Under the pieces are notes generated by a model. That model was not told where the DNA came from. It searched no databases and saw only the letters and a list, made by a program, of their open reading frames with translations. Positions 32,472 to 39,598 of a DNA stretch of 64,000 nt are shown here, in pieces (within the stretch, counting starts at the first letter, position 1; each line of letters begins with the position of its first letter). The translations under genes and the position numbers were made by a program. Where the stretch lies: positions 128,001 to 192,000 of the forward strand of contig JASGJN010000023.1 of the NCBI GenBank assembly GCA_049840735.1, in the 5' to 3' direction. This DNA comes from Anaeromyxobacter sp. GTDB lineage: Bacteria; Myxococcota; Myxococcia; Myxococcales; Anaeromyxobacteraceae.

Positions 32472-33876
32472 TCACCCGAGCCCGGCGGCGCGCATCCGCC
32501 GCCAGAGGGTGCTGCGGCTGACGCCCAGCGCCCGCGCCGTCTCCAGCCGGTTCCAGCGGTGGGCCTCCAGGGCTCGCGCCAGCGCCTCGCGGTCCTCCGC
32601 GGCGCTGGGCGGCGGGGCGGCGCGCGCGGCCGGCGCTTGGAGGGCCAGGGGCGGCGGAGAGGCCGGCTCGGGGCCGGCCAGCTCGGGCGGGAGGTCCTCC
32701 GGCTGGATGGTCTGCCCCTGCGCCACGGTGGCGGCGAACTCGAGCGCGTTCTCCAGCTCGCGCACGTTGCCCGGCCAGTCATGGGAGAGCAGGGCCCGCG
32801 CCGCCTCCGGTGAGAGCCGCAGCGCGCGGCCGGTGCGGGCGCAGGCCCGCGAGAGCAGCAGGCGGGCGATGGGCTCGATGTCCTCGCGCCGGGCCCGCAG
32901 CGGCGGCACCTCGATGGGGAAGACGCGCAGCCGGTAGTAGAGGTCCTCGCGGAAGCCGCCCTCGGCCACCGCCTTGCGCAGGTTCCTGTTGGTGGCGGCG
33001 ATGATGCGCGCGTTGGTGCGGCGCGTGGTGCTGTCGCCGACGCGCTCGTAGGTGTGCTCCTGCAGGACGCGCAGCAGCTTCACCTGGAGGTGGAGCGGGA
33101 CGTCCCCCACCTCGTCCAGGAAGAGCGTGCCGTCGGTGGCGGTCTCGAAGCGGCCGGCCCGGTCGCGGACCGCGCCGGTGAAGGCGCCGCGGACGTGGCC
33201 GAACAGCTCGCTCTCCAGCAGCTCGCCCGGCAGCGCGGCCGCGTTCACGGCCACGAAGGGGCCGCTCCGGCGCGGCGAGTGGGCGTGGATGATGCGCGCC
33301 AGCACCTCCTTGCCGGTCCCGCTCTCGCCGGTGATGAGCACCGTGGACTCGCTGTGCTGCAGCGGGTCGATGAGCCGGAAGACGCGGGCCATGGCCTGGG
33401 AGCGCGCGATGAGCCCGAACCCGGCGGTGGGCCCGGCGGCCTCCTCGGTGGCCTCGTCGGCGGGGCGCATCACCACCAGGTACTTCGCCGCGGGATCGCA
33501 GACGCCGAACTGGTCGTGGATGAGCGGCGCCGCCAGAGACCGACATGAGCCGGGTGGCCCCGCTCGGCGCCTGCAGCACTGCGCGCCACCCCTCGCGCTT
33601 CTCGCCGGCCTCGAGCGCCTGCCGCAGCGGCCCCTCGTCGCCGAACAGCTCGGCGCCGAGCAGGCCCTGGACCGGCTCGCCGCGGGCGCGCACCGCGGCG
33701 CCCTGGCCCAGCAGCGCGTCGAGCATGTCCGACGCGTAGCGGACCCGGAACCCCTCGTCGAGCGCCATGCAGACCCGGCCCAGCGAGCCGAAGGCGACGT
33801 TCACCGCGGAGAAGGCCTTCTCCTGGTCGGAGCCCGGGCCGCAAGTGGTGGCGGGCTCGGCGAGCGGCTCGCGCAT
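32472..33876 (-). CDS. PAS-like sigma54 enhancer-binding activator, frameshift near 33534
   Basis: [22 protein letters not shown], Fis HTH; the N-terminal sensor frame rejoins at MSVSAAPLIHDQFGVCDP. Confidence 0.85.
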
Positions 33877-33891
33877 GGCGTCTCAGCCTCC

Positions 33892-33999
33892 TGAAACATC
33901 CCGTTGCGGCATGGTGAAACATTTCGTCGCGTAGCGCAACGTCTCCGGGCTGCAACCGCCTGGGATCACTGACGCCGCTGTCCGGGCACGCGGCACGCA
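33892..33999 (+). promoter_or_regulatory. Candidate enhancer half-sites (TGAAAC x2, GCAAC x2, GTTGC) and sigma54-like promoter GGcacgcggcacGC for the otr operon
   Basis: GG at 33985 and GC at 33997 (N10 spacing) with a weak -12; divergent from a sigma54 activator. Confidence 0.5.
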
Positions 34000-34062
34000 A
34001 AGGAGGTTTGCGAGAAACGCGCCGCTTCACGCGGCGCCCCCGGTGAAAGGGCGGAAGCGCCG

Positions 34063-35496
34063 ATGGATGCCCCCAAGAAGAGTCCCTGGTTCCTGGCGCT
34101 CGCGGTGGGAGCCGTGGCAGTGGGCGCGGCCGCCGTCGCGCTGGCCACGCGCCCGGCGCCGCCGCCTCCGCTGCGCCACGCCGCCGGCTGGACCAGGCCC
34201 ATCCGGCCGCACTTCGACCACACGCCGGTGATCCCCGCTTCCTTCGAGAGCCCGCAGGCGGTCACCCGCGCCTGCCTCGGCTGCCACCCGGATGCCGCCG
34301 CGGTGATGAAGACCGCGCACTGGCGCTGGCTGGGGGACGAGGTCGAGATCCCCGGCCGCCCCGGGAAGAAGCTGCGGGTCGGCAAGGCCAACCTGCTCAA
34401 CAACTTCTGCATCGCGGCGCGCGGCAACGAGAGGTCGTGCACCAAGTGCCACATCGGCTACGGCTGGGCCGACGACAGCTTCGACTTCTCGAAGGCCGAG
34501 AACATCGACTGCCTGGTCTGCCACGAGCAGACCGGGACCTACGCCAAGGGCCCCTACGGCCTGCCCACCCCGGAGACCGACCTGGTGGCCGCGGCGCGGT
34601 CGGTGGCCACGCCGACCCGCGAAGCCTGCCTGGGCTGCCACGCCTTCGGCGGCGGCGGGCAGGGCGTGAAGCACGGCGACCTCGACTCCTCCCTGGCCCA
34701 CCCGCAGGAGCAGGAGGACGTGCACCTCGGCCGGCTCGGCTTCCTGTGCGTGGACTGCCACCAGGCGCCGGGCCACCAGCTGCGCGGCCGGGCCTTCTCG
34801 GTGAGCGTCGAGGACGCGCACGGCGTGGCCTGCACCGACTGCCACACCACGCCGGAGCACCGCGACGAGCGGCTCGAGGCGCACCTGTCGGCGGTGGCCT
34901 GCCAGACCTGCCACATCCCCAGCTTCGCCTCGAAGGTGCCCACCAAGGCCACCTGGGACTGGAGCAAGGCCGGCGACGGCACGCGCCCGGACGACGCGCA
35001 CACCTACCTCAGGATCAAGGGCGAGTTCACCTACGAGCTGGACGCGCGGCCGGACTACGGCTGGTTCAACGGGACGGTGGGGCGCTACCTGCTGGGCGAC
35101 CGGATCGACCCGCGGCAGGTGACGGTGCTCAACCCGCCGCAGGGCTCGATCGGCGACCGCACCGCCCGCATCTGGCCCTTCAAGGTCCACCACGCGAAGC
35201 AGCCCTACGATGCGGGCCACGACTACCTGTTCCCGCCCGTCACCGGCGGCCCGGGCGGCTACTGGACCACCTTCGACTGGGACAGCGCCTTCCGCCTGGG
35301 CGAGAAGGCCAGCGGCCTCCCCTACAGCGGCCAGTACGGCTTCGCGCCCACCGACATGTACTGGCCCCTCTCGCACATGGTCGCGCCCAAGGAGCGCGCC
35401 CTCGGCTGCAACGACTGCCACGGCGCCCAGGGCCGCATGGACTGGAAGGCGCTCGGCTACGCAGGGGATCCCATCCAGAACGGAGGCCGCCGGTGA
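34063..35496 (+). CDS. otr: Octaheme tetrathionate reductase family cytochrome c
   Basis: Eight CxxCH; VGKANLLNNFCI (Otr Lys-ligand region), GGGGQGVKHGDLD, LSHMVAPKERALGCNDCH; N-terminal TM or signal. Confidence 0.88.
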   Translation: MDAPKKSPWFLALAVGAVAVGAAAVALATRPAPPPPLRHAAGWTRPIRPHFDHTPVIPASFESPQAVTRACLGCHPDAAAVMKTAHWRWLGDEVEIPGRPGKKLRVGKANLLNNFCIAARGNERSCTKCHIGYGWADDSFDFSKAENIDCLVCHEQTGTYAKGPYGLPTPETDLVAAARSVATPTREACLGCHAFGGGGQGVKHGDLDSSLAHPQEQEDVHLGRLGFLCVDCHQAPGHQLRGRAFSVSVEDAHGVACTDCHTTPEHRDERLEAHLSAVACQTCHIPSFASKVPTKATWDWSKAGDGTRPDDAHTYLRIKGEFTYELDARPDYGWFNGTVGRYLLGDRIDPRQVTVLNPPQGSIGDRTARIWPFKVHHAKQPYDAGHDYLFPPVTGGPGGYWTTFDWDSAFRLGEKASGLPYSGQYGFAPTDMYWPLSHMVAPKERALGCNDCHGAQGRMDWKALGYAGDPIQNGGRR

Positions 35497-37749: not shown

Positions 37750-37751
37750 TC

Positions 37752-38271
37752 ATGGCCAAGGAACCGCGTCCCTACCTGAACCCGTACCTCGCCGGCGCGC
37801 TGCTCGGCGTGGTGCTCTTCCTCAGCTTCTACGTGACCGGCGGCGGGCTCGGCGCCTCCTCCGCGCTCAGCCACGTCGAGGCGGCGGTGGTCGACCTGTT
37901 CGCCCCGGCGCACGTCGAATCGCACCGCCTACCTGGCCGAGATGGCCGGCGGCAGCCGCAACCCGTGGAACCACCAAGGCGTCTGGATGCTGCTGGGCAC
38001 CGTGCTGGGCGGAATCGCCTCCGGGGTCCTCAACCGGCGCTTCAGGCTGGAGTTCCGCAAGGGCCCGAACGTCAGCACCGGCACGCGGGTGGTCTTCGCG
38101 CTGCTGGGCGGCGCCATCATGGGCTACGGCGCGCGGCTGGCCCGCGGGTGCACTTCCGGCCAGGCGCTCTCCGGCGGCGCGGTGCTCTCGGTCGGCAGCT
38201 GGGCCTTCGCGCTGGCGGTCTTCGCCGGCGCCTACGCGCTGGCGTACACCGTCCGCCGGCTCTGGAACTAG
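37752..38271 (+). CDS. YeeE/YedE sulfur-compound transporter half; +1 insertion at 37917
   Basis: NPYLAGALLG, GLGAS, GYGARLARGCTSGQALSGG. Confidence 0.82.
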
Positions 38272-38285
38272 GGAGGGCGATCACC

Positions 38286-39598
38286 ATGGCACCGTTCGCG
38301 CTCACCCCCGGCACCCTCGGCTACGTCCTCGCCTTCCTGGCCATCGGCCTCGGCTTCGGGTTCGTGCTGGAGCTGGCCGGCTTCGGCGACACCCGCAAGC
38401 TGGCGGCGCAGTTCTACTTCAAGGACCTCACCATCCTGAAGGTCATGTTCACCGGCATCGTGGTGGCCGCGGTGCTGCTCGCCGCCGCCACCTCGCTGGG
38501 CCTGCTCGACCTGGGCCGCGTCTGGATCAACCCCACCTACCTGTGGCCCGGGATCGTGGGCGGCCTGATCATGGGCGTGGGGTTCATCCTTGGCGGCTCT
38601 GCCCCGGCACCTCGGTCGTGGCGGCCGCGACGCTCAGGCGTCGACGGCATGCTCTTCCTGCTCGGCGTGCTGGTGGGCGTGGGCGCGTCGGCGAGACGGT
38701 GGGCCGCTTCGAGCCCTTCTACCTCTCCTCGTACATGGGCCGCTTCACGCTGCCAGAGCTGTTGGGGCTGCCGCTGGGGGTCACGCTGGTGCTGGTGGTC
38801 GCCATGGCCCTGTTCATGTTCTGGGGCGGTGAGCTGCTCGAGCAGCGCCACGGCCAGGGCAGGCCCTGGGCGGAGATCCGCCTGGCGCCGGCCCGGTCCG
38901 GCAAGGCGCTGGCGGCGGGCGCGCTCCTCCTGGCCGCCGCGGCCGTGGCCGCAAACGGCCAGCCCACCCCGCAGCAGGTGTTCGCCCGGCTCGGCCCGGC
39001 CGCGCAGGCGGAGCTCGAGTCCCGCGCCGTGGTGGTGGATCCGGCGGAGGTGGTGGCGCTGCGGAAGGACCTGACGGTGCAGGTGGTGGTGCTCGACCTG
39101 CGGGACGAGCACCAGTTCCTCCTGTTCCACGTCGGCGGCGCGCGGCGGGTGGGGCCGGAGCAGCTCCTGGCCCCGGGCACCGTGAAGCAGCTCCTCGACC
39201 AGCCCGCCTCGACGGTGACCTTCCTGGTCGGCACCGGCGAGGCCCAGGCGCTGGAGGCGTGGAAGGGGCTCAAGGGGCTGGGCGTGCCCAACCTTTACGT
39301 GATCGAGGGCGGCATGAACGGCTGGCTGGAGCGGTACGCCGTGCCCACCTGCGTGGCGGCGCCGTCCACCGCGGCCGCCGCCGGCGCCTCCGACGTGCCC
39401 CGCTGGCAGTTCGCCCACGCGACCGGCGACCAGCTCCCCGCCTCCTGGCCCGAGCTGTCGCGCTCCGGCGCGTTCCGCACCCCCTGCGGCGAGCCCATCG
39501 CCCAGGGCGGCCACGAGGGGATCACCTGGCCCGAGCACGCCTTCACGAAGAAGGTGAAGCTGCAGACGAGGACGGTGGTGAAGGGCGGGTGCGGGTGA
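38286..39598 (+). CDS. YeeE/YedE half fused to a rhodanese-like domain with a C-terminal GGCG tail; frameshifts near 38598, 38638 and 38688
   Basis: GFGFVLELAGFG, QFYFKDLTILKVMF, GGxCPGTS; VLDLRDEHQFLLFHVGGA and YVIEGGMNGW; ends TVVKGGCG-stop. Confidence 0.8.

Follow-up and report, generated by a model that had tools for sequence, protein, structure and literature searches.

A four-gene operon in the 64,000-nt stretch of an Anaeromyxobacter sp. contig analyzed here (the window) encodes an Otr-family octaheme cytochrome, a seven-heme/cytochrome b fusion and a split YeeE channel whose second half carries a rhodanese-like domain ending in GGCG, a module that is kept together in bacteria of at least eight phyla. 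The analysis establishes the gene content, synteny, folds and conserved residues of this operon, together with the co-segregation of its promoter and a divergent activator. Reading from sequence comparisons, we propose, with an even chance of being right, that the four genes together constitute a molybdenum-free quinol:sulfane-sulfur reductase that would act on sulfur bound to the GGCG arm. No description of this operon was found in the literature searched.

Operon layout, reading frames and regulation

The operon is real. Its genes run in the order otr, fusion, YeeE half 1 and YeeE half 2 (Table 1), and their spacing, re-read from the sequence, is as tight as the preliminary description had claimed: the otr stop codon (35494-35496) overlaps the fusion GTG at 35493 (GTGA), the fusion stop (37747-37749) precedes the YeeE half 1 ATG (37752) by 2 nt, and the YeeE half 1 stop (38269-38271) precedes the YeeE half 2 ATG (38286) by 14 nt, with the last gene closing on GGCG-stop at 39598. 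The same order of all four genes is present in 14 of 16 orthologous loci of the genus, the other two stopping at contig edges, and the operon is therefore not a chance arrangement. Domain and family profile searches found neither the molybdopterin catalytic subunit nor the Fe-S subunit of PsrABC/PhsABC in the operon.

Table 1. Features of the operon and its upstream region (window coordinates).
Feature	Position	Strand	Match or basis
Sigma54-dependent activator: PAS-like input domain, AAA+, Fis HTH; break near 33534	32472..33876	-	PF00158, PF02954
Direct repeat TGAAACAT x2 at 33892-33899 and 33915-33922, candidate activator binding sites	33892..33922		sequence
Conserved CAA...AT element between repeats and promoter	33953..33966	+	conserved columns, 13-locus alignment
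Sigma54 -24/-12-like promoter: GG 33985-86, GC 33997-98	33984..33999	+	
Otr-family octaheme cytochrome, 477 aa, intact	34063..35496	+	TIGR04315, 1SP3 match
Seven-heme Otr-fold domain without Lys/NNFC catalytic motif + FdnI/PhsC-type cytochrome b; breaks near 36880 (imprecise), 37590	35493..37749	+	
YeeE half 1, PmpA-like, C-terminal half of TsuA; GCTSG Cys 38149-38151; break near 37917	37752..38271	+	PF04143
YeeE half 2 membrane part, PmpB-like, N-terminal half of TsuA + one extra helix; breaks near 38597, 38638, 38685	38286..39040	+	
Rhodanese-fold domain, catalytic Cys replaced (Val here), predicted periplasmic	39041..39331	+	PF00581
C-terminal KKVKL...GGCG arm, SoxY-arm-like; Cys codon 39590-39592	39548..39598	+	

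This copy carries seven single-base indels, at the positions listed in Table 1, which leave four of its five genes interrupted. The operons of relatives are mostly intact, and the fusion is there a single ORF, with seven hemes in 68 of 71 ORFs of at least 700 aa. Decay of this genome's copy into a pseudo-operon, as opposed to mis-assembly of an intact one, is a separate question, and we judge decay unlikely. One method counts five frame junctions in ~7 kb here versus nine in 39.8 kb spanning 41 other genes, about three times the background; however, all seven breaks are single-base indels, most of them within or beside short base runs, every heme motif and conserved Cys is retained, 7 of the 41 ordinary genes are broken too, and the same kind of break occurs in the assemblies of two relatives (L032 and L046).

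The divergent sigma54 activator reported beside the operon was also found (33876-32472; PF00158, E 1e-69). Its input domain gives a weak PAS_4 match in an intact relative, and it carries two invariant Cys, both present in 19/19 aligned relatives. GAAAC/GAGAC boxes similar to the direct repeat occur upstream in relatives having the activator, and the CAA...AT element is one that we take to be IHF-site-like. The promoter has a non-consensus -12 element (ACGC), and the GGCAC-N7-GC pattern is found in 14 of 16 loci with a divergent activator versus 0 of 15 without one (chance expectation 0.065 per 330 nt). The proposed sigma54 control is thus supported for this lineage, where promoter tracks activator, but it is confined to a Myxococcota subgroup and is not a general rule, since only 6 of the 16 orthologues within the genus have the activator adjacent and 34 of 113 loci contain an ArsR-family gene.

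Conserved synteny and exchange of redox partners

Co-occurrence elsewhere, on which the preliminary description had staked its reading, was found. The best 80 GTDB loci anchored on YeeE half 2 (YeeE2) comprise 59 with all four genes, 4 with otr-yeeE-yeeE and a nine-heme partner, 16 cut by contig ends and a single exception (L106), so that Otr accompanies the YeeE pair in 63 of the 64 loci having room; anchoring on Otr recovered the full module in 11/11 above-cut-off Chloroflexota loci, although kin share gene order and such locus counts are not independent events. Together with gene content, this synteny supports the self-contained, molybdenum-free chain from quinone to Otr that had been suggested, and the operon's link to sulfur is likewise upheld.

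The YeeE pair also exchanges its redox partner. In a set of 20 more distant split-YeeE loci of Myxococcota, hand-picked for contig size, Psr/Phs-like molybdoenzyme operons account for 13, Otr is the partner in 6, and the remaining one has neither. Several of the Psr-linked YeeE2 proteins likewise end in GGC or GGCSG, and in five no Cys tail was detectable. Related regulators accompany the pair beside Psr/Phs-like partners too, and at one such locus (L068) an activator from the family seen here, with the same promoter, faces psrA-psrB-yeeE-yeeE(GGC)-nrfD. Cys arms are also found beside Otr on other scaffolds: a 101-aa protein ending in AGGC, with a weak, sub-cut-off match (E 3e-5) to ExtJ from the selenite operon of Geobacter, and, in 4 of 20 loci from gammaproteobacteria, DUF302 proteins that lie upstream of otr and end in GGC or SGC. 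In lucinid symbionts, soxY-S3 adjoins otr (PMC11237559).

Redox components, sulfur sites and proposed mechanism

The octaheme protein contains eight CxxCH motifs, scores 529 bits against TIGR04315 (curated cut-off 375) and matches Shewanella oneidensis OTR (1SP3) with E 1.4e-134. Alignment columns place its heme II ligand at Lys108 (codon 34384), equivalent to Lys56 of 1SP3, a heme ligand in OTR (PMC3769277), and an invariant Cys at Cys116 (codon 34408), equivalent to Cys64. The sampled module Otrs form one clade (34 rows, SH-like 99). The equivalent of Asp150 of OTR, which presumably has an active-site role, is Asp in 1 of 34 module rows versus 47 of 57 other rows. Cys/Sec exchange is a mark of redox thiols, and the Cys116 position is an in-frame TGA (putative Sec) in 11 of 30 Desulfobacterota loci, all 11 falling outside the module clade. 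Among 48 gammaproteobacterial and Desulfobacterota Otr regions fetched, a PhsC-like cytochrome b adjoins Otr in 34 and YeeE is present in only 2, so that channel and arm are not required for the Otr family.

The fusion combines seven CxxCH motifs with an above-cut-off PF01292 domain. Its seven-heme domain aligns with Otr (hhalign, 98.6%), and the domain as modeled in an intact relative resembles 1SP3 by both Foldseek (E 2e-5) and VIA (Z 10.8, 282 aligned, rmsd 5.2). The domain reaches only 18 bits against the MmcA family TIGR04314 (cut-off 250) and lacks the Lys/NNFC motif; correcting the first reading, it is, as modeled, an Otr-fold paralogue devoid of the catalytic motif. The relative's cytochrome b model resembles FdnI (1kqg_C; Z 15.3, 199 aligned, rmsd 4.1), a four-helix diheme fold with four His ligands (His559, 595, 708 and 722, each in 63/64), and in sequence it is most like PhsC, with an NF011582 score below cut-off. 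An FdnI/PhsC-type anchor suits low-potential chemistry, which, with the ANA-3 deletion result given below, makes a sulfur oxyanion or tetrathionate, as in the preliminary description, the weaker guess at the substrate. The direction of electron flow cannot be read from an FdnI-type anchor.

Both YeeE halves match PF04143, the second also giving a profile match to 6LEO 5-92, with its extra helix placed from model helices. Equivalents of Cys91 and Cys293 are retained, the former in the GxCPGT motif of half 2 (38600-38602; 100/100) and the latter in the GCTSG motif of half 1 (109/109), and these two and the arm Cys are the only invariant Cys; a third conserved Cys, equivalent to the cytoplasmic-side Cys22, was not found in the channel across the 100-locus alignment. 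A full TsuA thiosulfate transporter was rejected, given NF052577 and NF041049 scores far below cut-off and the missing third Cys.

The rhodanese fold is clear (VIA Z ~10 to GlpE, 10.3, and others; match to 1QXN, E 2e-5), but a catalytic sulfurtransferase was also rejected, as Cys occupies the catalytic-loop column in 0/100 loci and the next column in 1/100. Handling of sulfane sulfur by rhodanese catalysis is therefore not supported; the conserved thiol of the last gene is, judging by alignment, instead the arm Cys, with GGCG endings in 120/120 close homologues and Cys in 98/100 loci. One locus (L083) has TGA in its place (GGG-TGA-G). The arm is predicted to be periplasmic from homology to the TsuA topology, 4.0 K/R in the loop that precedes the final helix and a split form of the arm domain with its own hydrophobic anchor (L058), although the 2.25 K/R of the segment directly after the last helix weaken the charge argument.

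We propose that menaquinol would be oxidized by the FdnI/PhsC-type cytochrome b, with proton-motive force driving the electrons toward an acceptor of low potential, and that these electrons would pass through the non-catalytic seven-heme domain on their way to Otr. In the periplasm, sulfur originating from polysulfide or thiosulfate would be bound as a persulfide by the GGCG arm, held on a Cys-less rhodanese domain, and so delivered to Otr. The invariant Cys of Otr, beside Lys-ligated heme II, may then join in reductive S-S cleavage, releasing sulfide. Traffic of sulfane sulfur or HS- to and from the cytoplasm would run through the YeeE heterodimer, which would probably feed the Cys-bearing sigma54 or ArsR regulator. 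This reading draws on synteny, the invariant channel and arm Cys, the Otr/Psr partner exchange, the recurrence of the arm on unrelated scaffolds, the Cys-to-TGA exchange in Otr and in the L083 arm, and the indications of a periplasmic arm. Weighing against it are the majority of Otrs lacking YeeE, the Psr-linked YeeE2 proteins without a Cys tail, the TGA cases outside the module clade, and two literature results: a weak pointer to sulfite in the Shewanella ANA-3 otr mutant, and the induction of otr by tetrathionate in Acidobacteriota of sediments.

The original proposal, in which Otr would respire free tetrathionate or thiosulfate while by-products fall to YeeE and the rhodanese, now appears rather improbable. 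The PhsC likeness of the cytochrome b, in vitro activity of Shewanella OTR (as cited in PMC12949373) and otr induction in the sediment Acidobacteriota, 36-fold at day 8 (PMC8528874), agree with it, but otr deletion left tetrathionate respiration of ANA-3 unchanged (PMC12949373), the catalytic Cys is missing from the rhodanese, and the proposal offers no explanation for the invariant arm Cys. A reading in which sulfite, nitrite or selenium oxyanions are reduced at an open heme II site and the YeeE genes accompany Otr would fit the ExtJ match, the nitrite and hydroxylamine activities that PMC12949373 cites as the main ones of Shewanella OTR in vitro, and the in vivo sulfite role proposed there; we consider it very improbable, as it explains neither the retention of channel and arm Cys across at least eight phyla nor the pairing with Psr/Phs-like enzymes. 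Sulfur scavenging or sensing, in which Otr would cleave polythionates, polysulfide or thiosulfate and YeeE import the sulfur for biosynthesis or signaling without energy gain, is quite doubtful: TsuA imports thiosulfate (PMC7449682), SoxT1B signals (PMC11582611), and in one genome (G000) the pair are the only YeeE-like genes found with the queries used, but the channel lacks a Cys22 equivalent, no TusA/YeeD or cysteine-synthesis genes are among the recurrent neighbors of module loci, and fifteen c-type hemes are costly for assimilation.

The opposite direction bears on the same proteins: Otr would oxidize sulfide onto the arm Cys as persulfide and pass the electrons to quinone by way of an FdnI-type redox loop that generates proton-motive force, YeeE would bring in the sulfane sulfur, and the whole would be a heme-based, SQR/Sox-like sulfide oxidase. 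The FdnI fold is a quinone reductase in its best-known member, and three loci have a type III SQR gene close to the module; however, the paralogous YeeE pair belongs to Psr/Phs-like operons, whose characterized members are reductases, and no sHdr, Dsr or Sox genes (SoxZ partner included) are among the recurrent neighbors. Even with the arm's resemblance to SoxY (PMC11237559) and sulfur import for oxidation by SoxT-type YeeE (PMC11582611), oxidation seems unlikely.

Within the reductase reading, Otr itself could be a carrier-dependent persulfide reductase and not a small-anion reductase, with a Cys/Sec nucleophile beside Lys-ligated heme II acting on GGC-arm-bound sulfur, and the arm recruited onto at least four unrelated scaffolds (YeeE-rhodanese, ExtJ-like small protein, DUF302 and SoxY), a suggestion we hold tentatively, at somewhat below an even chance. 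If Otr is such a persulfide reductase, the operon would encode a sulfur respiration complex that is molybdenum-free, reverse-Sox-like and interchangeable with that of PsrABC, and that is widespread, its hosts including Anaeromyxobacteraceae, Anaerolineae and further anaerobes in which sulfur respiration is not known.

Comparison with known systems

PsrABC/PhsABC with Sud of Wolinella couples quinol to the reduction of low-potential sulfur in the periplasm, aided by a rhodanese-type protein, and the same split YeeE pair occurs within psr-like operons; unlike it, the module has no molybdopterin or Fe-S subunit, and its thiol sits on a tethered terminal arm and not in the rhodanese active site. 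CbcL of Geobacter, which serves low-potential acceptors, likewise fuses a multiheme c domain and cytochrome b in one protein. MmcA of Methanosarcina, a seven-heme relative of OTR, has neither the catalytic heme nor the Lys (PMC11024163), whereas the seven-heme domain of the module forms one protein with cytochrome b and has a catalytic Otr as its partner. MccSep (ExtKL) of Geobacter sulfurreducens, with proven polysulfide reduction by Sec/Cys and heme, is also a molybdenum-free periplasmic multiheme protein with Sec/Cys interchange near the active heme, but it is a pentaheme with His/Cys ligation, and YeeE/YedE is absent from the main text of the source (PMC13510729). The equivalents of Lys56, Cys64, His78 and Lys153 of S. 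oneidensis OTR are all present in the module Otr, which differs in its separate clade and in its operon link to the fusion and YeeE-arm pair, other Otrs standing mostly with a plain PhsC-like cytochrome b. With YeeE/TsuA, SoxT and split PmpAB the channel shares its two Cys (PMC11582611, PMC7449682), but its halves measure ~174 and ~440 aa versus ~130 aa, and it departs from them in its fused, predicted periplasmic arm, in lacking a Cys22 equivalent and in having no YeeD/TusA partner among the recurrent neighbors. Finally, the arm lies on a membrane-tethered rhodanese fold and not on a SoxY fold, in a protein to which Pfam assigns only Sulf_transp and Rhodanese and no SoxY domain, yet it shares with SoxYZ/SoxAX the terminal V/I-K-V...GGC(G) arm and a heme-linked sulfur chemistry on a carrier Cys (PMC11237559).

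The four-gene operon and its setting

Four adjoining genes, encoding the multiheme cytochrome Otr, a fusion of a 7-heme domain with cytochrome b, YeeE1 and a YeeE2-rhodanese protein whose C-terminal arm ends in GGCG, constitute a real, conserved and apparently unpublished respiratory-type sulfur module made of known parts. The window (74% GC) shows the spacing claimed in the preliminary description, a GTGA overlap followed by 2-nt and 14-nt gaps, and the divergent sigma54 activator gene that it placed beside the operon. The otr gene is intact and encodes 8 CxxCH motifs, its product scoring 529 bits against TIGR04315 (cut-off 375) and E 1.4e-134 against 1SP3. 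Seven single-base indels are spread over the other three operon genes and the activator gene, and frame junctions counted by one method number 5 in ~7 kb at the locus versus 9 in 39.8 kb spanning 41 other genes; assembly error is a likelier cause of these frame breaks than decay in this strain.

Features of the operon and its surroundings in the window
Feature	Position	Strand	Remarks
1,500-aa protein	24169-28671	+	Very long Glu/Ala/Arg coiled-coil region, 78-83% GC
Large lipoprotein-like multiheme cytochrome	29058-31931	+	9 CxxCH; carboxypeptidase-regulatory and PKD-like domains; weak match to UshA-like (seleno)protein
Terminator-like hairpin	31970-31999		3' of the multiheme cytochrome gene
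114-aa lipoprotein-like ORF	32177-32521	+	Convergent with activator; ~50-nt overlap at activator 3' end
sigma54 activator	33876-32472		Divergent from the four-gene operon
GCGAGAAACG-like element	34010-34024	+	Just 3' of the -12 box
Four-gene operon	34063-39598	+	otr, fusion, yeeE1, yeeE2
Presumed UDP-sugar pyrophosphorylase, frameshifted	40069-41349		Resemblance by eye; downstream of operon
Presumed CrcB fluoride channel	41411-41791		Resemblance by eye; downstream of operon
Presumed MobA-like guanylyltransferase	42811-43425		Resemblance by eye; downstream of operon

Synteny of the large multiheme cytochrome gene with the module is absent in relatives, and the 114-aa ORF has no Pfam or NCBIfam match and is absent from the 16 genus loci.

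Close Otr orthologues (66-75%) were found in 16/36 same-genus genomes, with the four genes in order at 14 of these loci and a contig edge cutting the other two. A profile of the YeeE2-rhodanese protein, run against 11/64 of GTDB, gave 597 confirmed stretches, of which the best 80 were examined; these are the closest relatives, include two duplicate genus loci, and come from related genomes that do not represent independent counts. Among these best 80, otr, fusion, yeeE1 and yeeE2 occur in order at 59 loci, otr-yeeE1-yeeE2 accompanies a 9-heme membrane protein at 4 (labelled Bacteroidota, Chlorobiota and Ignavibacteria), 16 have less than 3 kb of upstream sequence, and a single locus (L106) has room upstream yet lacks the partner genes. 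Complete loci are labelled Myxococcota, Chloroflexota, Eisenbacteria, Acidobacteriota, Desulfobacterota, Gemmatimonadota, Pseudomonadota and Bacillota. An Otr-anchored search of 201 Chloroflexota genomes identified Otr above cut-off in 12, and the full module is present at 11/11 above-cut-off loci (centre genome left out); the single weak match lacks it. The co-occurrence of otr, multiheme cytochrome b and two yeeE genes is thus conserved.

Otr-anchored searches of 351 gammaproteobacterial and 201 Desulfobacterota genomes returned 30 and 41 matches, respectively, with 30 loci listed for each. In the wide regions examined around Otr (20 gammaproteobacterial and 28 Desulfobacterota loci), YeeE lies near Otr in 2/48, whereas a PhsC-like cytochrome b adjoins it in 34/48; the module is therefore a trait of an Otr subfamily. 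Module Otrs form one clade (34 rows, SH-like 99) in a 97-row FastTree tree, midpoint-rooted and without bootstrap, whose rows include 26 type I sequences chosen, with the window, from ~70; most Otrs of this clade lack the Asp150 equivalent. At another locus (L283:4353-8322), otr is followed by a plain cytochrome b, yeeE1 and a yeeE2 ending GGC, with an ArsR gene ahead.

The sigma54 control initially suggested for the operon remains likely for loci with the activator and does not extend to the module at large. The activator adjoins only 6/16 genus orthologues, leading us to reject universal sigma54 control; it was found only in Myxococcota or loci labelled delta proteobacterium, and ArsR-family genes occur at 34/113 loci. 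A GGCAC-N7-GC pattern, derived from the window itself, lies upstream at 14/16 loci with a divergent activator versus 0/15 without one (chance rate 0.065), the two misses being one- or two-base variants. The GC of the window's own copy is at 33997-98, and reduction of arm-bound sulfur by the module would predict a transcript beginning ~12 nt beyond it and induced by sulfane sulfur. Members of the same activator family, with this promoter, also face a psrA-psrB-yeeE-yeeE-nrfD operon (L068). The two Cys residues present in the activator PAS-like domain in 19/19 relatives hint that it may sense thiols. Neither a sigma70 promoter nor an operon terminator was found. The GCGAGAAACG-like element is kept in activator-bearing loci, including the L068 psr operon. 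Small ArsR proteins that resemble BigR weakly and carry CCMxxC in a C-terminus rich in Cys adjoin Otr operons as well as Psr-like operons (L035, L048-L051, L067).

The heme fusion, the YeeE pair and the terminal arm

Single ORFs with 7 hemes account for 68/71 long fusion ORFs, ruling out that the 7-heme domain and cytochrome b are normally separate genes; c7 and cytochrome b Pfams occur together in 119 of the best 120 database matches, and genuine split forms exist (L058). The heme domain matches Otr in hhalign (98.6%), and a model of the fusion from an intact relative (pLDDT 87) matches 1SP3 (Foldseek E 2e-5; VIA Z 10.8, 282 aligned, rmsd 5.2), so that by sequence comparison and predicted structure this domain is an Otr paralogue. 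Six of its heme motifs correspond to Otr hemes III-VIII, while the first is placed at heme II by global hhalign, with low confidence, and at heme I by motif reading. Neither the Lys/NNFC signature nor an invariant non-heme Cys is present in the aligned relatives, as is the case in the conduit MmcA (PMC11024163). The membrane part is predicted to fold like FdnI (Z 15.3), and four His in it are conserved.

Both channel Cys are conserved in the two YeeE halves (109/109 and 100/100). Their equivalents are essential in S. thermophila TsuA (PMC7449682), and split halves of this kind have been proposed to form a heterodimer (PMC11582611). Handling of sulfane sulfur by the rhodanese, as first envisaged, fails as catalysis: the active-site Cys is present at 0/100 loci, and a catalytic rhodanese was rejected, whereas the arm Cys is kept at 98/100, with terminal GGCG in 120/120 close homologues. 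A helix count based on TsuA topology predicts a periplasmic rhodanese/GGCG domain, with which loop charges are mostly consistent; a split form of the arm domain has its own hydrophobic anchor (L058, judged by eye). Foldseek returned no match to the YeeE2 model at E<=0.001, and VIA recognised rhodanese and YeeE folds. In the single-chain model (tail pLDDT ~62, without the partner half), the alignment extends up to residues 436-437 against TsuA 217-218 (range ends only), adjoining Arg215, a residue of the periplasmic thiosulfate site (PMC7449682), a hint that the tail may lie near this site. A complex prediction for Otr (45-477) with the rhodanese/GGCG domain (score 0.01, mark 0.32) is evidence neither way.

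Among 20 weaker YeeE2 matches from a Myxococcota search, selected on contig size, 13 belong to operons for Psr/Phs-like molybdoenzymes, 6 accompany Otr and 1 has neither as a neighbour; 5 of the 13 Psr/Phs-linked proteins lack the Cys tail, and a representative Mo subunit is closest to PhsA, below cut-off. Terminal Cys arms next to Otr also occur on scaffolds other than YeeE-rhodanese, including a protein of 101 aa with a terminal AGGC, encoded with a yeeE pair on one side and a distant Otr paralogue on the other, DUF302 proteins ending GGC/SGC at 4/20 gammaproteobacterial Otr loci, and soxY-S3, a published instance beside otr (PMC11237559).

The invariant NNFC Cys of Otr (Cys116; Cys64 of 1SP3), near the Lys-ligated heme II, is an in-frame TGA at 11/30 listed Desulfobacterota loci (41 matches) and at 0/30 gammaproteobacterial ones, and the arm Cys codon is TGA in L083. 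TIGR04315 had been tabulated earlier as a GenBank-annotated selenoprotein family, the motif not being stated (PMC13188914). An extra Cys right before the heme II motif (NWCRC), possibly a resolving Cys, occurs in 8/11 TGA-bearing Otrs (L179, L182, L183, L191, L193, L194, L196, L205). Otrs with a 5-heme N-terminal extension, ~13 hemes in total, have an in-frame TGA at the conserved Cys (L199, L201; wider L215, L216). A distant Otr paralogue that falls short of the TIGR04315 cut-off has Met instead of the Lys ligand and retains the Cys; it is linked to a yeeE pair, to a small protein that terminates in GGC/AGC, or to both (L047-L051, L066, L289).

A candidate electron route and the function of Otr

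Anchors of the FdnI/PhsC type fit low-potential acceptors, driven by proton-motive force, which counts against tetrathionate or nitrite and is compatible with either direction. Roles of Cys64 and Asp150 in OTR are presumed here, and our literature search found no paper confirming them or a proton-motive-force-driven PhsC. We consider most likely, at an even chance, a route in which quinol would reduce the cytochrome b of the fusion, electrons would pass through its 7-heme Otr-fold wire to Otr, and Otr would reduce a persulfide on the GGCG arm, which YeeE would connect with the cytoplasmic sulfur pool. The anchor would also allow the module to run in the oxidative direction, a reading we consider improbable. 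Reduction of an arm persulfide by Otr has counts against it: most Otrs occur without YeeE, and others have reported otr induction by tetrathionate in sediment Acidobacteriota (PMC8528874) and a hint of sulfite from an ANA-3 mutant (PMC12949373).

The physiological function of Otr has never been established, according to a 2026 genetic study, which states that Shewanella ANA-3 respires tetrathionate without its involvement (PMC12949373); genome studies, such as PMC8528874, treat otr as a tetrathionate-respiration marker. No account of the four-gene operon was found in the literature searched, which consisted mostly of the main text of papers outside subscription journals. The operon provides a candidate electron donor and a candidate substrate carrier for Otr, whose function becomes directly testable through it: the arm Cys and Otr Cys116 are two residues open to test, and Anaeromyxobacter oryzae, where a fusion homologue is recorded (P0128), is a named host. 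If persulfide reduction on the arm is right, the set of sulfur-cycling microbes would be larger, and the module would join MccSep as a second way of respiring sulfane sulfur without molybdenum.
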